Below are positions 5,923 to 63,200 of a stretch of 64,000 nt of DNA, one piece after another. Each line of letters begins with the position of its first letter. Position 1 is the first letter of the stretch. A program made the translations under genes and the position numbers. Location: the NCBI RefSeq assembly GCF_024521635.1, contig NW_026250412.1, positions 496,001-560,000 of the forward strand. Direction: 5' to 3'. This stretch comes from Tricharina praecox. Its lineage: Eukaryota. A model generated the notes under the pieces. That model worked only from the letters and a program-made list of their open reading frames with translations. It was not told where the DNA came from and ran no database searches.

Positions 5923-8824
5923 TCATTCCAGCTCTTTAACAACCGCATGCAATATTTCCTCCGAGTTCTTGAATCTTGCACGCGGATCCTTCGCAACCCT
6001 CTGCCACACCTCACCATGCCGTGGCTCGGTGATCGAGAGTTTAACCAGCACATCCGCGCGCTTCTCCTCACTGCCGTGTTGGGCCAAGAACTTCCAGTAC
6101 CACGCCCAGGTGTCGCCATAGTCCGGGTCCACGAGGATTGCCTTCTCAAACCAGTTCATAGCCTTGGGAAGCTTTCGTTCCGCCCAGAAGTTGCGGGCAA
6201 CGGCGACATAGAGGATGGGATCGTTGCCAACTTTCTCGATAGCTTCGACTAGTCGTGGGCGACGGTGGGTGCGCGCTTCAAGATACCATACACTCTCCGC
6301 CCATAGAAGTCCGCTGTGCGGGCACTCTTGCAGAGCCTTTGCCATGAGCGTCTTTGCTTGTGTGGGGTTGTTGCCGCGGCGCTCGATGCGGACGGATTCG
6401 CACCAGAGCTCGGGGCATTTGGGCACGGCGAGGCGAGCGCGGTCGAGGATGGAACGGGCGCGGACTAAAACACCGGCTTTTTCTTCGAGACGCGCAAGGA
6501 GGAGCCATAGTGGTGCCGACTTGGGACAGGTTTTGGTACCGGCGTTGTAGGCTTCTCGAGCAGGTGGGAGTTTGTTCTCGGATTCATATATTTGGCCTTT
6601 CATCATCCATAGCTTGTCAGCTTTGGGATAGAGTTGTAGACCCTCGTTGACAAGTTCGAGGGCGGCGTCGGTGTTGCCCTGTTGTCGTTCGAACGCCACG
6701 CTCTTGATCCATACTCTGTCGGTACCTGCTTCCCGTCGTGCCGTGGCGAGGAGTGTTCGTGCAGCCTCATGTTGTTGGTTCTCCGCCTCGAGTTTGACGG
6801 CGGCAAGCCAGATGTCTTCGTTGTTGGGGTTCTGGCTGAATGCCTTCCCGAGGACGACACGGGCGCCGTCGATTTCACCGGCTTGCCACTTCTCCTTAGC
6901 GAGCATCATCCACAGGATCTCGCTCTGTGGACACGCCTCGACTGCTTTTTCGAGAAGACTCCACAGCGCTTCCTTCGTACCGTGGTTCTTCTCCAATTCT
7001 GCGGCGGCGCGCCAGATGCTCTTTTTGGTGTAGAAGACTCGCAGAGCATAGGCGTAGATTGCTCGTGCAGTTTCGTATCTGCCGCGGGAGATGCTGGCTT
7101 CGGCGTCATCCATCCAGATCTTTTTACGGCCGTCGTCTTCTTCCAATTGCCAGCCAAGGGTTTCACGGATGATGGAATGACAGGTTTCCACCGCTCCCTC
7201 TTCTTCGCATTTCTCAGCTTCCTTAATCCAGTCCTCACGGGACAACATGGCTTCCACACGCGCGAGTGCTTGGACGGCACGTTTCATAACGTTGATCTTG
7301 TTCGCATTGCCTTGCTGCTCCTGGAGTCTTGCGGCGGCCAACCAAATCTCATGGCTTGTTGGGATGGCTTTGCGGGCTTTGTTGAGGACGGCCTGCGCAT
7401 TCTCAAATGTCTCCAAACGGGCCAATGCCAGCCACAACTCCACACTCAGAGGGATAAGTTCCACCGCACGAGCCAGCAGGATCTTAGCATCATTCGGATC
7501 TGCCTCCAGTTTGACTGCCTCCTTCCACAGCATTACCGACTGCGGAATGATATCCAGCGCCTTTCTGATGACCTTCTTTTTCGCTCTGGGATCAGTTTCC
7601 AGCTTCATAGCTTCCACCCACAATCGCACCGCCTTCGGGTTGTGTTTCACCGCATTTGCTGCAATGATTTTGGCGTTATGGACTTCATTCAATCGCATCG
7701 CTTCTAGCCACACATCCTCATTCTTGGGACAATGTTCGCAACCACGCTGCATGATCGTCCGCGCAGCCACCATCTTTCCCGCCACCTCCTCCAATCTCGC
7801 AGCGGCAATCCAGCCCGGTCCATGCTTGGGGTTGGTACGGATAACACTCTCCAACAGTTCGCGTACACGTTTGATGTCGCCGATCTGCTCAGCGCTCTGC
7901 GTAGTATTCCGTGACAAGCTGGTGAGATATCCCTTGGGGTCGATATTGGTCGAGCCTGATGCTGAATCGCTCGTGCTCGTCCCAGATATACTCCGATCCA
8001 GCCTCGCCTCGAGCACCTTCGTCTTCGCCTTTCCAATGTTGACGAAATTCGTCATCGTACCATCGACCTGATCTTGACTCGCCGAGGAAGGCGCTCCATC
8101 CTCTTGTACGGATGTCTCGAACTCCGATCCACTGACTGCACCGGCAAGCACCGAGTCTGGTGTAGGATAGAATTTCTGTCGCATGGCTTGCCTTGCGCGG
8201 CGATTCCGACCAGTCAAATCTCCAACCTCCGGTAGATTCGCCCACTCGTCGTCGCTGACGGTGGACAGCGCTCGCTTCAAGTCGGCAAACTGCTGCTGAA
8301 TCTTCGGGTTCATCGCTTCGTATTCCTCTCGCTCGGCCTTTTCTCTCAGCTCCCTAACGCGCCGCAAAAAATCTCGTCGGTAAACGTATTCCATCTAAAG
8401 TAAAGATCACACACAGACGGGATAAACAAAGTACCGTAGAAATGGTATAGTGGGGGAGGTAGTACCTTTGAGTTTTCCGCCGCTTCTCCATTTTCTCGTC
8501 GACCGTTTGGTATATCCTATCGGCCTCGTCGTCGTCTTCATCGTACGCGCCGCCGGCAAACAGCCCGACTTCATTCTCAGGATCTTGGAAGCGGGGGTCG
8601 TCGTCGTCGTCATCGTCCTTTTTCTTGTCGGCGCCGTAGGCAGTGGGAGGCGCGAGACCTTGAGCTTCCGCCCGCCGTGCGAGAGCTGCCTTGATTGCCT
8701 CTTCCGACGGTCCTTCCCGTGCAGGGCCGATATCGGATCGGGTGGTGAAGCCGGTGGCACCACGGCCCAATCCGGCGACGTAGTTTGCCGGCGCTTCTTG
8801 CTCGAGGAAGTTGCGTTTCGACAT
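5923..8824 (-). CDS. PRP6: Pre-mRNA splicing factor Prp6 (U4/U6.U5 tri-snRNP, HAT/TPR repeats; S. pombe Prp1)
   Basis: Exon 1 8824-8466 (MSKRNFLEQEAPANYVAGLGRGATGFTTRSDIGPAREG, the PRP1_N motif), intron 8465-8354, exon 2 8353-5923 with TNPKHGPGWIAAARLEE and many HAT repeats. Confidence 0.97.
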
Positions 8825-50100: not shown

Positions 50101-52917
50101 CTTGACTGCCCGCCGCTATGCTAGTGGGGGCCGACCGACCGATAGACCGACCGTCCGACCGCCCCGCCTGCCTGCCTGCCCTACCGTGGCTACTGGCCAG
50201 ACGAGACATCATGACTATTTTTTGAATATTCTGCACCTCGAGAGATGTAGGTCTGATACTCTAGGTACGGTATTTCACCCTCAGCTGCCTTACTACTAGT
50301 ATTGATGTACATCAACGCCGTGCGGACGGAGCGCCTGGACATCAAGTATCCGACTGCTATTTTGTAAGTACCTTTGCACTCGGCCAGTCCTTCTGCGGCC
50401 GGAAATTGAGCGGGACCGCTGCATCCGAGTATGCCCGCTGGTGCTGAGTGGCTCTCCGTAGCGATTTCGCTCGTGGTGGTGCCTTATGGGTAGAGCAGGT
50501 AATGCCGTCGCTCGTCGCTGCGACTCCAGCTCCCATGATTGCCGGTATGGCCCCGTACCGTACCGTCCCTACTCTAGAGTCAAATGCTCTGGTCTGGCCA
50601 TGTAAGCTAGTTGAAGTATGTAGCGCTTGTCACGCGACTTGCAGCCCGCAGTAACTGCCTGACTTGACGGACTGCCCACCTGCATTGCTGCCGACGGCGA
50701 TTGGATGTACATCCTTCCGCCCTTCCATACGGGAATCGGAACCGCACCGCACTGCACTGCACCGCAGGAACGAAGCAACCCAGCGGCGAGCTGACGTTGT
50801 GGTCTGCTGCACCGCAGCTGAGCAGCACAAAGTCAACGGCTCTAGGTACTCTACTATAATCGCCACAACACAGCAGCAACCCCCCCTCTCCAGAACCAAG
50901 TATGACGACGTCCGACGCACCGCGTGCACATCTCCTCGCTATCTGTCTGTTCACCACCTTGACGTCGACGTATCGTGAAATGCACGATGATGAAGTCGAA
51001 CGGTGTAGTAGTGGGGGAGGGGGAGGGAGATAGCACGCGGGGAGCAGCAAGCAGGAGACGTGCCGACCGGCGATACCTAGGTCTTGCCCGTCAAGCTACC
51101 CCTCTCTTGCTCTTCGCGCCCGCGCTCCCATCATGCCCTACCTGCGATTTCTCCTCCCGGACCCATCGGTGACTCGGTCACAAATCGGTGACTCGGCCTA
51201 TTCCATTTCCACACTAGTCGGCACTGGGGCAGGGGTTATCCGCAACCTCACTTCAGTTGTCATCCAATCACAACCCATTCCTTCCAAACAAGGGCTGATC
51301 GAAACACAAGACTTCAGCGAATCGATTGTTGGATTCGCCACGTGAATGTCTGCGTCCGAGCTGAGGGAAAGAGAAGAGGGGGGTGGGGACACTACCTAGG
51401 GTGCTAGGTCCTCCGTGAACCCATCTGGTGCGGAAAAATCATCCCAGAGCACCGCCTTTTCCTATGTATGCCCAAGGGTCAGGAACGACGGCGGGATGCT
51501 AGAGGTGGAGTATCGAAATTGATGGGCGGAAAGCCCTTTCCAGCCGCCCAGCCGCGCCCTCCGATCAGGCACGGAAAGACTCTGACCTACAGTAGCGATA
51601 CCCTCCTGTCACCGCAACTCGTATCTGGCTCACCATCCCCCCCCCCCAGCCCAGTAAGATTGGGGGCCTCAAGATTACATACCGCCGAGAGAGACTCTGC
51701 AGGTACGGGATAGTTGCAGTAGGAAGGGCATACATATCGGGCCCTCGATAGGTCGACGATGAGGCGGCGCGGTGGTGTCAACCAAATACCGCCTGCAGGG
51801 CGAGGGAGTGCATGAGGGGGAGGGGAAGAGGAGGAGGAGGGGAAGGAGGACTAGGAGGAGGAGTGGGTGCTAGAGATGGTGGTTGTGGTTGTGGTGGTGG
51901 TCATGGACTCATGGTGGTGGTCATGGTGGTCATGGTGGTGGTGGTGGTGGTTGTGGTGGGGATGGAATGTCTTTGCGCCACTGGGATGATGATTGATCGG
52001 TCCGTTGCCAGAGACCTGGGTTGCTTGGACTCACTGATATTGACTTTTAACCGTATTTGGATGCATCTGCATTCCATACCGATATCGACTGAACAAGCCC
52101 GAGCGGCGATGGATGGATGGATGGATGGATGGATGTGTGAAACGGGAGCTTGTGCTCACATCTCTGTCGCCGCTCCGAGTGTGTTTCACTTTCCTGGTTT
52201 CGGTAGCTCCACCTGCTCTGCTGCTGCTGTAGCGTTGCTGTGTTCTCCGGAGCCTAGCCTGGCCCCAGCCTGCAAATTGCTCGCTCGCTCGCTGCCTCTT
52301 CCTCCGCCTCGACGCCAAAAGAAAAATGAGGGGTACTCTCTTCTGCAAGAGCCGATGATTCGGGCGCAATCCGTCCCATACCCTGTGTGTTCGTGTGGTC
52401 GGGGGGAGGGGGGGTGTGAGGAGGAGGGGGGGGATCTAAGCTGCAGGGCATGGGTTCCCGAACGTCGACAGGCGAGAGCAACGATCGCTACCACCCACAC
52501 TCTGCCTTCCGGAATCCATGTCCTACATACCGGTGGCCCGTGTGGGACTTTATAAGAACCGCGACCTGTCCCTCACCGCCACTGCCCTCAACCCTTCCAT
52601 TCTCGGCTTATTTACACACTCTCTTCTGGATAACCTCAAGTCGATATATCAACACCACCGATCTCACCACCACCACTACCACCACCACCACCATCATCAC
52701 CATCGTCATCATCACCACCATCCCCGTTCCTTGCTCTTAACTCAAGTCCTTTCGTTTTCACCTACCTGCGGTCTTGACCGACTGTTACTGCGTTACTCGC
52801 CCCGCCGGGCATACTGAACTGGACTTCTTGGCACTTGACTGAAGACTCCCAACGACTCTTCGCCTTTCTCGAATTTGCCCCCCCCAACGTGCATGATCAT
52901 CGGCATCCCTCCGCTTT

Positions 52918-53940
52918 ATGTCGAGAATGCCCGCCCTACTACTCCCCAACACAGCGTCGCCTTTTGCGCCTCGGTCTTCGCCGACCATAGTTCTGAACAC
53001 CAAGGTCGATCCGTGGTTAACGGCTACGCTCAAGCGCATCAACCGGATCAAAAGATCACTGAACAGCGTTCCCCAGCACATGAAATGTCTCACCGAGACG
53101 CTTTCCCAGCAATCCGCAATCTGGAATCTCTGCACGTTGATGGTGCCCAAAGCCCCGGCATCGCAACTTGACAGGCACGACAACCCGTTGGTTGAGGCTT
53201 TCGCCCGGTTCGAGCTGCTGCACGTTCAGGCCTATGTGGTGCATATCGACTTGGTGCTGTCCCACGAGGTGGCATTCAAGCTGACGAAAGACACCATTGA
53301 CGATCTCTGCGAATACCACAAGGACATATACCTGGTCGATCAGACGGACACGACATGGCCGTGGACCGAGAAGGAAGCGCAGGTGAAGAAGCTGCACGAC
53401 GAGTTCCATCAGGCGGTCAACAAATATGTGTACCGGACGGATGCGATCGCCTTGGAAGGGCTGGAGGACGACGGAGCGGGAGAGTTGCTCTGTGGACGCA
53501 GCGAGGATGTGAAGGCGCAGGTTCTAGCGCTGTTCTACCCGCTCATGCCGCCACCGCCACGAGTTGTCGACGTTGTGCGGCCAGTTGCGCAGATGCTGCC
53601 AAGCAACCCCGGAAACTGGTGGAACCCTTCGCCGGTGCCTTCGAATGCGCCCCCTCCGCCTCCCGTTGAGTCCTGGAAGATTCTGCCGTCAAGTCCCATC
53701 GAGGACAACTCGCCTGTTTCCAGCTCTGGAGGATTCCCGACAATCTGGGGCCCGACCACTGGCTATGACATGCCCGTTACCTGCTCTCCGGGACCGCAGT
53801 ACACTCAAGCGCCTACAACCCTCTCCATGTCGATCCCGCAACTGCCGCTACCCAGTATGGTGGCTCAGCAGTGCAGCGTGGGAAGCGGATTTGGAGGGTT
53901 TGGCTGGGACCGCTACCAGGACTACGGTGCGACGATGTGA
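52918..53940 (+). CDS. Hypothetical protein (340 aa, single exon) with a globular-looking N-terminal region and a Pro/Ser-rich tail; function unknown
   Basis: Long ORF with clear codon bias (FAPRSSPTIVLNTKVDPWLTATLKRINRIKR...AYVVHIDLVLSHEVAFKLT). TATA-like TATAAG at 52551, pyrimidine-rich leader and U-rich 3' region. The ATG at 52927 (AGA ATG C) has a better context than the one at 52918. Confidence 0.88.
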   Translation: MSRMPALLLPNTASPFAPRSSPTIVLNTKVDPWLTATLKRINRIKRSLNSVPQHMKCLTETLSQQSAIWNLCTLMVPKAPASQLDRHDNPLVEAFARFELLHVQAYVVHIDLVLSHEVAFKLTKDTIDDLCEYHKDIYLVDQTDTTWPWTEKEAQVKKLHDEFHQAVNKYVYRTDAIALEGLEDDGAGELLCGRSEDVKAQVLALFYPLMPPPPRVVDVVRPVAQMLPSNPGNWWNPSPVPSNAPPPPPVESWKILPSSPIEDNSPVSSSGGFPTIWGPTTGYDMPVTCSPGPQYTQAPTTLSMSIPQLPLPSMVAQQCSVGSGFGGFGWDRYQDYGATM

Positions 53941-58600: not shown

Positions 58601-59419
58601 ACTTGGACCGGCCGGCTACTGAGGACGGGCATCTGCCCGTCGTCCATCGTCTCCGCACCTCCTCGGACCTCGTCTCCTCCCCTCCCCTCCCCCACCCAGC
58701 TATTCCGGGGGGTGATGGATGGATGGATGCAGGCAAGCAGGCAGGACGAGACTACCTTTCTCCTCGGCCGTGAGCACGCAATCCTGTCAGGACTCAGGAC
58801 TCAAGACCGCCGGGCGAAACCCACCGCATGACTGGTGAGCACAACTTCCCCCCTCCCCCTCCCCCGTCCCCCCTCCCCACTGCCCAGAACAGCGCCTATG
58901 TACATTGTATCGTCGTACTGACTGTGTTGCTAGAGTTATTCTTGGATGAAACCACGGTTCGTAGAATCGTGGCAGGGAGACTGAGTCCCAGGCTCCCAGC
59001 GTCGCCGACCACTTCGTGAGAACTTGGAAGGCCTGCACTGACGGGCGAAAAGTAGGACACATCGCACATCACAAAGTTAACGAGATCAATACCGTGCTTG
59101 AGGACTGCGTTTCCACGCGTTCGCTGATCATTCTCGTTGTCTTCGACGAGCAGAGTTCTCAGGTGTCTGTGGCTACACTTTGGCTACACTTTGAAGTTTG
59201 GCTACATCTTCCACAAACATCGAGAGAGAAAACACCGTCCCATCCAAATTTCATTCCGTTACTCGCCGTAGTACGTACCGTACCTACTGTACACTCTCGA
59301 GTCTCTCCAGAGTCTCCAGAGCCCCGCTCCAGAGACGCCACAGAAACGAACGAACGAACGTACCCAACGCCACGGACCTGACCGGCCACCTCCCCCCCAT
59401 CACAGCGGCCTCTCAACCT

Positions 59420-59981
59420 TCAATTCCACCCAATAATTCCTTCCCCCAGCACGACGCCCTTCCTAACAACGGAGACGGACCTACCAATGATCCCGTCGCC
59501 GCCCACGCCCAGATCCAGACGTCTATCCAGCGGCAGCCCATCCGCCTTCTCCATCGCCACCTCCAGCGAAAACAATATCTCGCCGGCGGTCTGCACGCCG
59601 CCCGTGAGGTCGCCCAGGTTACTATCCCCTCGTTAGCTAGCTATCCAGCCGGCGGGCGGGCGGGCGGGCGGGCGGGCAGGGGTGAGGACTGACTGTATCC
59701 GGATCTCGCATTCGGGGACCGCGAACGTGTATGATACCTCCGTGGGCAGCGGGGGAGGCAGCGGGTTGTGGAAATGTAACTGGAAGCTGCTGAAGCCGTC
59801 GTCGATGTCGGCGTCGAGGGAGGTGGACTGGAGGTTTGCGACTACTCAGAGCAGGGCGAGCCTGCGGGTTAGTGTGTGTGTGCCCGACCCTCATCATGAG
59901 GGCCTCATGCGAAGGGGAAACTCCTGGGCCGTACGTACCTGCGCCGCCGAGAGAGGTCCGGTGGGAGAAGCCGTTGCACAT
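59420..59981 (-). CDS. Small 130-aa protein with a Cu/Zn-SOD / CCS domain-II-like signature, lacking metal ligands (3 exons)
   Basis: Exons 59981-59939, 59841-59694 and 59621-59420 (43+148+202 = 393 nt). Introns GTACGT..CTAAC..TAG and GTCAGT..GCTAAC..TAG. Protein: MCNGFSHRTSLGGAVANLQSTSLDADIDDGFSSFQLHFHNPLPPPLPTEVSYTFAVPECEIRIHNLGDLTGGVQTAGEILFSLEVAMEKADGLPLDRRLDLGVGGDGIIGRSVSVVRKGVVLGEGIIGWN*. Confidence 0.85.
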
Positions 59982-60242: not shown

Positions 60243-60249
60243 ATTTATA
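60243..60249 (-). promoter_or_regulatory. TATA box (TATAAAT) upstream of the SOD-like small gene
   Basis: Consensus TATAAAT on the minus strand about 265 bp upstream of the ATG at 59981. Confidence 0.5.
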
Positions 60250-63200
60250 CACACCCAGCTACCCACAGCTCGCCGCCACCACCACCACCAACGCGCTCAT
60301 TCATTCATTCATTCATTCGCAATGGCCGTGAGCACGTTTCCTGGTGGCGTCGGCACCTTCTAGGTATAGCTGTGTCACCGCTCGCATTGCGTTGCGTTGT
60401 GGTGAGCGAGTTCATTTCGTGCGTGCGTGCGCTGGTTTTTTCCCGCTTCCCGCTTCGGTGGCTCGGGGCCGGGCCGCTCGGTCGGTCGCAACGGCCGTGC
60501 GCTGGTTTTCGATCCGGCCGCACGGGCGCACGGGATGATTGCGACTCGGGAGCAACGGCGCATGGAACCCTAACCCCAACCCCGTGTGCGGATGGCCGAC
60601 GTGGACACTAGACGAGCCTGAAGCGAAGCGAAGCGGAGGAAGATCGTTGAATTGAAACGAAATACTCTCTCATCGTTGGGGTTGGGTTGGGCTGGGCTGG
60701 GTGTTTATAATGCAGGCTACGTACGCCGGTACGGTATACATCGAAGGCGCAGGATTTTCTTTCCTCTCCTTGCCTTTCGTGGGCTCTTCTGGAGGATTAT
60801 TGGGCATGGTCATGGTAGGTATGGTAGGGAACGTAGAAAAACACCGAGTGATCTGTTTGGACGATCATGGGCGGTTGTTGCCCGTTGGGCATCGTTAGTT
60901 ACTCCACCGCCTCCGCCGTCTCCACTGCTGGCCAACCATCGCTGAGGGCTCGGATACACCTGCCCCCGCTGGAGACGCGATGCGAGGATTGAGGGAAGAG
61001 TTTTTTTGGAGGTGGAGGATTAGTTTTACGTTCTTCACGAATCACCTGTGCTACGAGGTATGAAGGTAGGTACCGTGTGCGTGTGGGAGCGGGAGCCTGG
61101 TGGGCTGGCAAGGCTGGGCTGGCAAGGCTGGCAAGGCTACTACATACCTAGTACATACACGGCCGAACGACCCATGATGTACAAGGCTGTACGTCTCCCA
61201 GGAGCATCCATGAGAAGGGCAAGCTTCGCGTACAGCGCAGCAAGGGCCCAACTTCCAAGGGATGTATGCAGTGAGAAAAAAGCGGGCCATCGAGGTGCGG
61301 GGTGGGGGGGGGGGGGGGACTGGGACTTTGAACTGGGGAGACCAGACCAGACCGGCGTCTGGAGTCTGGACGATACGGTACTAGGTATGAGGGGGAGGGA
61401 GAAGTTTGCAGAAAAGCGGAAAAGCAACAAGTGCAGACCTGGTGCCGCAGGGCGCACCAGCGGGAGGTGGGCCGCGCAGCAGCAGCAGCAGCAGTGAAGT
61501 CTGTGTCAGGAGGAGGGCCTGCGTAAGTCTAAGTCTAAGCCGGTGGTTCTGGGTACCTACTATCTACTATGCGGCCGTCAGTCAGTGATACATAGGCGCC
61601 CGCACCGAAAGGTGGTGCAGGCAAACAAAGCCAAACACAGGAAGACGAGATAGGATGAACCCGGACCTGAAGCGTCAGGGCAAATGCCGGAGCAAGGAAT
61701 GAAAAGAGAAGAAGGTGTTGTGATCACCGCTCCCGTCCGTCTGTCTGTCCAGACAAGCAGTGTGCACCCACTGATATACCTTGCAGGTGGTTATCGATAT
61801 CCCCACCACCACCACAGGCACCATGGCCATTATCGTAGCCCCCCCCCTGAATGACAGAAACAGCGTTTCAGCGCCGCGCCAGACGTCTTGGAGGGCCGTC
61901 TTGGAGGGCCGTCTGTTCCGTTGGGTACATATGGAGCGGGGAAGGTGGGCAGACAGACAGGCAGGAAGGCAGGCTAGCAGGTGATGGTGGTGGTACGGTG
62001 AGAGGGGGAGGGCACCCACACACACACACAGGAGGAACAAGGACCTGATCGATCATCGGCCCCCAAAGGAAATCAAGACTCGTCCATACAAAGGAAAAGC
62101 AAGACTCCCCCCCCCCACCCCACACACACACACAGTGCTACACACCACCTGCCGACCATGGAGCCCAACTAGCGAGGATTCCCCCAGTCATGGCTCCGGC
62201 AAATGATACCTCGTCGTCGTCCAGTGCTCTTCACGTGTATGGAAGGGGGGCATGGTACTCCGCTCCAAGTTCCAACAGGAACCGTCCGGCGGGGCCAGGG
62301 CCAGGATGGTGCGCGGACGCTCCTACTGGCTCGCCGCCTACGCGTATCTCCTCAGCCCTCAGTCGACGGGGCCTGGCGGTCACCGCCTGGCCAGTCCTCC
62401 TCCTCAACCTCCTCCTCCTCCTCGCCGTGCAGCATGTGACGGGCAAGGTCTTCCGCAACTGGATGGACGGGGAACTGTAATCTAGATTAGCCCAGGTCAG
62501 GCAGCGCAGAAACTCCGGATTTCCCTGGACCCCGCCACCAGCGCGCGTCGTCTTCGTCGCCGGCCGCCGCCGCCGTCGTATGTTTTTCTTCTTCTTCTTC
62601 TTCCGTCTTTCCTTTTCCCCTCCTCTTAGGGGGCGGGGGGCGAACAGCAAGCGTTTCAGCTTTGGCAGGTTTTCTAGTTTTTTGTCCGCAAAAAGCGTAT
62701 TTTAATATGAGTGAGTAGTCCGGACTCCGGAGGGGAGGGGGGGAGGGCAAGCCTGCCTGCGGCCTGCCTGCTCATCGCAACATGTAGGTCAACTTGTCAA
62801 GCGCAGGCACTGTGCAGTGTGAGCGGGTGGGATGGATGGATGACGGATGATGGATGGATGGATGGGATGAGTGGATGGATGGATGGGATGGATGAGTGGA
62901 TGGACGGGATGGATGGATGAGTGGTTTGATGGATGGATGGCGGTGGCCGCGTCACAGACTCACATCACAGCTGCTTCACGAATCTTATACCAAGACCACT
63001 GGTTCCCTGCAAATGGGGAATTTAGGGGCAATGGGGAATGGCGTGATTGGGTCCTTTTTACGGTCAAAGAGGGCGGTCTAGCTTCGAAGGCGCGGAGGCG
63101 GTGATCGATTCGTAGGGCCCCGATGTAATCATCATCCATCGGGGGAGGGGAGGGGAGGGGGCTGGCAGTGGCTGTGGCTGTGACTGTGGTGTCCTGGACG

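Follow-up and report, generated by a model that had tools for sequence, protein, structure and literature searches.

A putative copper-sparing pseudo-superoxide dismutase behind Mac1-type promoter boxes in Tricharina praecox and related fungi

The 64,000-nucleotide stretch of Tricharina praecox contig NW_026250412.1 analyzed here (the window) carries, on its minus strand at 59981-59420, a gene for a 130-residue protein that resembles a superoxide dismutase (SOD) in predicted fold and has lost the active site of one. The protein keeps the face through which SOD1 dimerizes and adds a short N-terminal arm with a nearly invariant cysteine. Promoters of its relatives share a box that fits the Mac1 consensus, and in many of the related loci the gene lies beside a Mn-SOD gene. 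We tentatively propose, with confidence a little short of even in the statement as a whole, that this pseudo-SOD is a pseudo-enzyme of the Mac1 regulon and withdraws Sod1 from service so that copper is spared.

Gene, fold and conserved surface

The earlier note on this DNA described a hidden three-exon gene with canonical splice signals and an in-frame product of 130 residues, and the splicing is borne out by public contigs in which both introns are removed. The joined exons (393 nt) encode a protein identical to XP_051340040.1 (hypothetical protein BZA05DRAFT_444459, T. praecox; P0001 in our set), so the gene is hidden only in the sense that a simple open-reading-frame track lacks it; NCBI already annotates it as a hypothetical protein. 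Exon 1 (59981-59939), supported by contigs and conservation, runs from Met1 to the first base of codon 15 and supplies the N-terminal arm with Cys2, Arg8 and Gly12-Gly13. Exon 2 (59841-59694) encodes residues 15-64, that is, the first four barrel strands up to a split His64 codon, and exon 3 (59621-59420) encodes residues 64-130 and the stop, including the GDLT loop, the LDLGVGGDGIIGR loop and the terminal GIIGWN strand of the dimer face. Intron 1 (59938-59842; 97 nt, GTACGT..TAG) has a branch-like ACTAAC at 59873-59868, and intron 2 (59693-59622; 72 nt, GTCAGT..GCTAAC..TAG) lies within the His64 codon; all of these features are on the minus strand.

The splicing evidence consists of contigs from four public runs, of which X1 and X2 are merely guessed to be RNA and X3 is a recorded metatranscriptome. 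Intron 1 is skipped at its GT..AG ends in contigs of two of the four (X1 and X2, joint 59841/59939), and intron 2 is bridged in three (X1, X2 and X3). X1 also contains a contig that retains intron 1, at a depth of 58 compared with 66 for the spliced form. As precise loss of both introns is a signature of RNA, X1 and X2 fit RNA although that origin was guessed. A scan of metagenome contigs yielded 44 related loci, with the start codon placed in 36; intron 2 has the same position within the His64 codon in 35/42, two of the 44 being without the anchor motif. A nearer CAG acceptor for intron 1 (59864-59862) would give a 20-residue product and was not seen in the contigs. Neither a pseudogene nor recoding of TGA was accepted, as the TGA in question, at the 3' end of intron 1, is intronic. 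Intron 1 bypasses a CAG three bases past its CTAAC branch motif and takes a more distant AG (59873-59842). In the Pyronemataceae-like locus L017 (about 5957-6023), an intron at the same codon shows the same CTAAC-NNN-CAG, with a frame-keeping second CAG 8 nt on.

An AlphaFold2 model of the product is a beta barrel (predicted local distance difference test, pLDDT, 82; predicted template-modeling score 0.76). The structural search suggested in the earlier note returned the SOD Greek-key barrel expected there: every row listed by Foldseek and VIA was a Cu/Zn-SOD or a CCS domain II, the best match (Z 12.8, root-mean-square deviation 2.6 Å over 108 residues) placing residues 10-130 of the model on SOD1 1-152. 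An Atlas model gave template-modeling scores of 0.67-0.70 to SOD and CCS clusters. A profile of 126 members, picked as full length from about 250, aligned by hhalign with 95 fungal Sod1 sequences (probability 90%, E 1.7e-6, 113 columns), and the GD, IGR and GxIG parallels with SOD1 drawn in the earlier note hold in this alignment. Predicted fold, structural matches and profile alignment agree, and together they support a stand-alone, non-catalytic Cu/Zn-SOD barrel.

In the profile alignment with fungal Sod1, the Zn loop (His63, His71, His80 and Asp83) and the electrostatic loop are gaps, Sod1 Cys147 aligns with Glu124, and the columns of the Cys57-Cys146 disulfide hold no conserved Cys. The catalytic Arg143 is absent, its loop being deleted. 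Among the four Cu ligands (His46, His48, His63 and His120), His48 alone has a conserved match: His64, which aligns with the fungal Sod1 Cu ligand His49 (human His48), is kept in 107/126 members and is replaced by Glu in 10/126 and by Phe in 4/126. A His or Cys majority occurs at residues 2 and 64 only. Having lost the Zn site, the disulfide, the electrostatic loop and most ligands, the pseudo-SOD is predicted to be inactive as an SOD. The label "metal-ligand-free" in the earlier note is an overstatement with respect to His64. The CCS Atx1-like and CxC domains are absent, as first noticed: the arm is too short, and 112/126 members end one residue past GxxG[WYF]. The 126-member alignment contains no conserved Cys beyond Cys2, no CxC and no Atx1-like domain.

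Conservation is concentrated on the face that pairs SOD subunits. Gly110, Arg111, Gly125 and Gly128 are present in 126/126 members, Gly67 in 125/126 and Asp68 in 112/126; residue 129 is aromatic (Trp, Phe or Tyr) in 123/126, and a terminal Asn is found in 116/126. Residues in the interface modeled below have a mean top-residue frequency of 0.70, as against 0.40 elsewhere, a difference matched in 0/10,000 permutations that ignored burial. The assignment of GD, IGR and GxIG to the SOD1/CCS dimer interface is matched by a conserved dimer face. CCS is reported to differ from SOD1 by Ala231 for Gly150, Arg232 for Ile151 and Arg104 (Sala et al. 2019, PMC6383938). At these diagnostic positions the pseudo-SOD face is of the Sod1 type: Gly128 (equivalent to SOD1 Gly150) is invariant, residue 129 is aromatic and not Arg, and Arg occupies the CCS Arg104 position in 16/126 members, the human numbering being carried over through the profile alignment. 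With a Gly150-type Gly, an aromatic residue 129 and few Arg104 equivalents, the interface resembles that of a permanently immature Sod1.

The choice of full-length sequences could bias the 126-member set, so Cys2 was counted in 197 proteins assembled without that choice; all reach strand 1, and 196/197 have Met-Cys just upstream of it (within 24 residues). From Cys2 to Ala16 the arm spans 12-18 residues, with 14 in 87/126. The N-terminal MCxxxxH had been put forward as a possible metal or redox site. Conservation supports a functional Cys2, whereas MCxxxxH as a metal motif was rejected because His7 is not conserved (Ser 42, Thr 38, Asn 5 and Ala 5 are commonest in that column, n = 95).

Promoter boxes and Mn-SOD neighbors

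We compared 22 promoters, comprising 21 distinct ones for which 300 nt or more of upstream sequence was available plus that of the window. TGCTCA occurs in 22/22, at 44 sites, compared with 8.6 promoters and 10.8 sites expected from shuffles, none of 200 of which matched the total. It was the top de novo 6-mer, and 2/17 downstream controls carry it. The longer box ACNTGCTCA is found in 19/22 promoters, as opposed to 3/203 other tiles of the same loci and 0/104 window tiles, and fits DHNTGCTCA, the consensus obtained by chromatin immunoprecipitation sequencing of Fusarium oxysporum Mac1 (Palos-Fernandez et al. 2024, PMC11563359). Across the 38.4-Mb genome, ACNTGCTCA occurs 1,187 times, equivalent to about a 2% chance per 600 nt. 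The 1,500 nt preceding the Pfam match contain it at 3/6 Ctr transporter loci, with four copies at one; in the same interval it was found at 0/6 HMA or ATE1 controls and at neither Sod1 nor Ccs1. The genome encodes two copper-fist factors.

In the window, the Mac1-type box ACGTGCTCA (60329..60337, minus strand), 353 nt upstream of the ATG, fits the Mac1 consensus. Three TGCTCA hexamers (60209-60204, 60195-60190 and 60181-60176, minus strand) follow between -228 and -200 in a 7-nt tandem repeat, and may in part reflect simple repeat. A candidate TATA box, TATAAA, lies at 60249-60244 (minus strand). Judged from these sequences, Mac1 very probably induces the pseudo-SOD gene. GCTGA, AP-1-like, GATAA and CCAAT motifs were not enriched in the 22 promoters. 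A second motif, GAGTACC, was enriched (10/22 promoters, in loci L017-L060, with 0.7 expected) and could be either a shared ancestral block or the site of a co-regulator.

Gene order points to the same circuit. A Mn/Fe-SOD gene lies directly upstream, at 170-700 nt, in 19/44 loci. Of the 17 distinct loci that have 1.2 kb or more of upstream sequence, 12 carry a Mn-SOD there, ten in tandem and two divergent, and the ten tandem loci have Pleosporales best matches; the neighboring Mn/Fe-SOD was Pfam-confirmed in the five loci scanned. One locus, L052 (1-9873), lines up an HMA/P-type ATPase, a Mn-SOD, the pseudo-SOD, a Ctr transporter and a ferric-reductase-family gene, and its shared promoters carry several TGCTCA sites. 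No Sod1 or Ccs1 family member was present among the 78 neighboring frames scanned. The TGCTCA boxes and the linkage to Mn-SOD and copper-uptake genes, neither of which was noticed earlier, would indicate when the pseudo-SOD acts.

Published work on fungal copper regulation is consistent with this placement. In F. oxysporum, the uncharacterized gene FOXG_18820 is reported to be a tandem neighbor of sod3, a Mac1 target, with a single Mac1 site separating the two genes; it is Mac1-bound and rises (variably) in low copper, while sod1 falls (PMC11563359, the sole paper in the open-access literature searched that mentions FOXG_18820). This layout is that of ten related pseudo-SOD loci, and FOXG_18820 is predicted to be a pseudo-SOD orthologue. 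Histoplasma Mac1 is likewise reported to induce an Fe/Mn-SOD, along with ten genes whose function is unknown (PMC9040751), and copper sparing through a change from Sod1 to Mn-SOD is described as established in Candida albicans (PMC5198983).

The Mn-SOD neighbors have features of their own. Those at L028, L030, L036, L037, L040 and L042 begin with a leader that is hydrophobic and resembles a signal peptide, after which an in-frame Met immediately precedes the SOD domain, and the same leader and internal Met recur at L046, L048, L056, L059 and L055. This arrangement suggests, from sequence, that secreted and cytosolic forms could arise from one gene. Most of these leadered Mn-SODs have own promoters without the long Mac1 box. 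In T. praecox, near-identical Mn/Fe-SOD genes occur on different contigs (L064 and L065), one with ACATGCTCA shortly before the C-terminal domain match.

The modeled complex and competing readings

The T. praecox genome also encodes an intact, separate Sod1 (P0250) and Ccs1. The predicted complex of P0001 with P0250 scored 0.91 in all three runs, compared with 0.01 for the best of three controls, which agrees with the pairing suggested in the earlier note. The runs share at least 92% of contacts, with partner pLDDT of at least 80. For calibration, the pass mark is reached by 51/78 solved microbial complexes and 2/108 mismatches, and by 71/105 solved eukaryote pairs and 2/126 unrelated pairs. 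Beyond the canonical face, the modeled interface contains arm residues 4-6, 8 and 10 and Sod1 residues 59-63, 134, 137-138 and 141-144, which belong to the disulfide loop and to the Arg144 channel. CCS domain III is reported to contact human SOD1 at Thr58 and Arg143 (PMC6383938), and in the model the pseudo-SOD arm would follow the domain III route from the opposite end of the chain. Binding to Sod1 or Ccs1 through the SOD1-type dimer face is, in our estimation, probable.

These elements can be assembled into a sequence of events. On copper shortage, Mac1 would turn on the pseudo-SOD along with copper-uptake genes and the copper-free Mn-SOD. Using the ordinary SOD1 dimer face, the pseudo-SOD would pair with one Sod1 subunit, and its 14-residue arm, ending in Cys2, would come to lie over two sites at which CCS domain III normally acts, the disulfide loop of Sod1 and the entrance to its active site. 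The pseudo-SOD has no CxC, Atx1 domain or Cu/Zn site and so cannot load Sod1 in the manner of CCS. Sod1 would then be kept unloaded, blocked or destined for copper release, copper would be spared for other cuproproteins, and Mn-SOD would take over. A more active version, which we regard as doubtful, makes the pseudo-SOD an anti-chaperone: induced by Mac1, it would dock on mature Sod1 and reverse the CCS reaction, with Cys2 (thiol plus free amine) opening the Sod1 disulfide or extracting copper, and would thereby recycle the large Sod1 copper pool. If true, this would be a protein-level copper-sparing mechanism in fungi without a described counterpart in the literature examined.

Several points weigh against assigning the pseudo-SOD to Sod1 shutdown under Mac1. 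Three of the four boxes in the window sit in the tandem repeat, bare TGCTCA is common (47/203 locus tiles and 22/104 window tiles), the promoters are phylogenetically related and not independent, and the ACN extension that defines the longer box was derived from the same promoter data. The tandem linkage in Pleosporales may be a single inherited arrangement. No Mn-SOD lies beside the pseudo-SOD in T. praecox, where Mn/Fe-SOD matches are on other contigs, or in 5/17 loci (Cladosporium-, Meristemomyces-, Aureobasidium- and Pyronemataceae-like), and Podospora PaSod2 is reported not to be directly controlled by GRISEA (PMC3495915). Because SOD1 dimers and CCS-SOD1 complexes have already been solved, the high complex score may reflect no more than resemblance to them. 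The method also lets close relatives of a real partner through, and a pass for the Sod1 pair does not discriminate between Sod1, Ccs1 and self-pairing. The conserved face could instead serve self-pairing or Ccs1. Cys2 and Sod1 Cys58 are outside the confident contacts, with residues 1-3 below pLDDT 50, and the Thr or Ser of the GDxT/S tetrad is kept in 73/126 members only.

Were Ccs1 the partner, the pseudo-SOD could act as a decoy that mimics immature, disulfide-free Sod1, is captured by Ccs1 and stays bound, since the release-triggering disulfide cannot form in it; Cys2 may in addition occupy the Ccs1 CxC or its copper. Such a role fits the Sod1-type face (Gly128 invariant, no Arg at 129), the loss of both disulfide cysteines, the reported dependence of SOD1 release from CCS on disulfide formation (PMC6383938) and the precedent of the leporipoxviruses (PMC7605207), and the regulon evidence serves it equally well. 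The Sod1 complex, however, passed strongly and uses the arm, and the Thr/Ser that CCS reads in GDxT/S is the poorly kept position noted above, so we rate a decoy as unlikely. Its outcome would be that of Sod1 inhibition, namely less copper to Sod1, reached one step upstream. The opposite role, a helper or holdase that stabilizes copper-free Sod1 until copper is again available, or a mini-chaperone whose Cys2 aids disulfide formation or passes on scarce copper, would fit the arm as modeled on the CCS domain III patch, the likeness to fungal CCS domain II in the GDL loop and in the loss of the Zn loop, and the joining of the pseudo-SOD to copper-uptake and delivery genes in L052. As the pseudo-SOD has one Cys only and neither a CxC nor an Atx1 domain, and as the same genome encodes an intact Ccs1, we consider help to Sod1 distinctly unlikely; moreover, fungi lower sod1 transcripts and raise Mn-SOD in low copper, which fits shutdown of Sod1 instead.

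The pseudo-SOD might also work as a self-dimer independent of Sod1 and Ccs1, for example as a small carrier of Cu(I) or another metal or a thiol sensor, either of which would use the paired N-terminal cysteines of the two subunits, or by assisting Mn-SOD or the Ctr/reductase uptake system. Homodimerization alone explains the conserved face, His64 is widely kept, and linkage is to Mn-SOD and uptake genes, with Sod1 and Ccs1 missing from the 78 neighboring frames. Yet the modeled arm contacts fall on Sod1-specific loops that the pseudo-SOD family itself lacks, the exchange of His64 for Glu or Phe is unlike an essential ligand, and the neighboring Mn-SOD has a signal-peptide-like leader in most tandem loci whereas the pseudo-SOD has none, making this role rather improbable. 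Least probable by far is an oxygen or redox sensor acting through a Cys/Arg N-degron, of which plant ERF-VII and animal RGS4 are examples, possibly carrying Sod1 to the proteasome. The Cys fixed at position 2 after the start Met and the presence of an ATE1 gene in T. praecox are compatible with it; an exon-wise search of T. praecox, which is not proof of absence, gave no match to a PCO/ADO cysteine dioxygenase, and our open-access literature search found no paper on such a route in Ascomycota. Inhibition of Sod1 by direct pairing is accordingly the reading that we carry forward, at the tentative level given at the outset.

Locus, family and known systems

The pseudo-SOD gene lies in a gene-poor part of the window, where its neighbors offer no clue to its function. 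Its nearest conserved neighbor is a 347-codon frame at 52897-53940 (plus strand) without a Pfam match, which also adjoins the pseudo-SOD gene in L017 and L018; local synteny is thus kept among close relatives. Upstream of the gene are two out-of-frame ATGs, at 60244 and 60210 (minus strand), and the X1 and X2 contigs extend to at least 60500 at lower depth, although contigs cannot reveal transcript starts or strand. A long-leader transcript with overlapping upstream reading frames could damp translation of the pseudo-SOD. On the other side, an X1 contig runs from the 3' region of the gene into a spliced transcript of the plus strand; the loose end of this contig matches 58805-58834, which implies a 99-nt intron (GTGAGC..CTGAC..CTAG) at 58835-58933 (plus strand). 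This plus-strand RNA is convergent, overlapping and probably non-coding.

A profile of the first eight full-length relatives gave 553 matches among 8,000 candidates scored, and a 95-sequence profile gave 420 clusters at 50% identity (E up to 0.001; among the best 150 listed, at least one is a false positive). Only part of the matches were given organism names; named members include Xylaria, Stachybotrys, Ilyonectria, Ceratocystis, Aspergillus, Vezdaea and one Lipomyces record among others. We take the member classes to be Pezizomycetes, Orbiliomycetes, Dothideomycetes, Eurotiomycetes (Aspergillus) and Sordariomycetes (Xylaria, Stachybotrys, Ilyonectria and Ceratocystis). As judged from these matches, the family spans filamentous ascomycetes and carries no name. 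A protein search of the T. praecox genome found the pseudo-SOD at this locus only, and the gene is apparently single-copy there. The Lipomyces record, P0140 from the yeast Lipomyces kononenkoae, has Glu for His64, as do the Aspergillus members, and may represent ancient retention, transfer or contamination.

Standard sequence searches pass over the family. In Pfam scans, neither the exons nor 95 members gave an SOD (PF00080/Sod_Cu), HMA or other consistent family; PDB sequence searches gave nothing significant (0 matches, yeast Lys7 domain II at E about 1, and an unrelated chain at E 1.6); and profile comparison with single Sod1 or Ccs1 exons was insignificant. Among the candidate members, P0208 (4,417 residues) was discarded as a repeat-rich false positive, and the database label "oxoglutarate iron-dependent oxygenase" on two members is unsupported. 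Searches of the open-access literature, with subscription journals largely outside their scope, found no description of the family.

The low-copper exchange of Cu/Zn-Sod1 for Mn-SOD is known in fungi, and the papers examined describe transcriptional control and not the fate of existing Sod1 or of Ccs1. A pseudo-SOD that is conserved in fungal cells and has the promoter motif of this exchange is a tangible candidate for the step that they leave out; in the literature searched regulators of the dead-SOD kind were viral only. Members come from saprotrophs, plant pathogens and Aspergillus, for which copper restriction by the host is important. For work on SOD1 maturation and misfolding, a naturally occurring protein that binds the SOD1 dimer face and bears a reactive cysteine arm would be of interest too. 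The idea is cheap to test, given a small gene, a clear promoter motif and clear candidate partners.

Compared with Sod1 itself (PF00080; PDB 3qqd, 1hl5 and 6zs1), the pseudo-SOD shares the Greek-key barrel, the GD, IGR and GxIG elements, a Gly at the Gly150 position, a Sod1-like loop VI length and a His at the His48 position. It differs in having no Zn loop, electrostatic loop, His46, His63, His71, His80, His120, Asp83, disulfide Cys or catalytic Arg, and in its additional N-terminal Cys arm; the low-copper boxes, in turn, are absent before the T. praecox Sod1 match. With domain II of Ccs1/Lys7 (PDB 1ej8, 1jk9, 1do5 and 6fon) it has in common a non-catalytic barrel (Z 11.7 to human domain II) and, as in fungal CCS domain II, a missing Zn loop, and the GDVSKGVESTG of the latter resembles pseudo-SOD GDLTGGVQTAG (the Lys7 match at E about 1). 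Its arm is modeled on the patch that CCS domain III contacts. Unlike Ccs1, it lacks the Atx1-like domain I and the CxC domain III, starts 14 residues before strand 1, and has Gly for Ala231, an aromatic residue for Arg232 and an Arg at the Arg104 position in a minority of members, subject to the same transferred human numbering; a profile match to domain II of T. praecox Ccs1, a single sequence, was insignificant (probability 2.6%). Fungal Cu-only SODs of the SOD5 type have an intact Cu site and a secretion signal. The pseudo-SOD has neither the Cu ligands nor, in the alignment, a hydrophobic leader, and it retains GD, whereas Cu-only SODs are described as being without GDXT (PMC6383938).

The closest functional precedent is found in leporipoxviruses. 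The pseudo-SODs of myxoma and Shope fibroma virus have the SOD fold without an active site, and are reviewed as catalytically dead proteins that lower cellular SOD1 activity by sequestering CCS (PMC7605207). The comparison concerns function and fold type only: the viral proteins are anti-host weapons, whereas the fungal gene is cellular, occurs across several classes, encodes an N-terminal Cys arm and is tied to the cell's own copper-starvation regulon. With the Mac1 switch from Sod1 to Mn-SOD (SOD1/SOD3 of C. albicans; sod3 of F. oxysporum) it shares the trigger, the promoter motif and the Mn-SOD partner, while that switch is described as transcriptional, with no protein acting on Sod1 or Ccs1 named in the relevant passages (PMC11563359, PMC5198983). 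Pseudo-SOD regulators in viruses and the Mac1/Mn-SOD swap in fungi are thus already known; what appears to be new is that the Mac1/Mn-SOD circuit should include a pseudo-SOD which is cellular, conserved and equipped with a cysteine arm.

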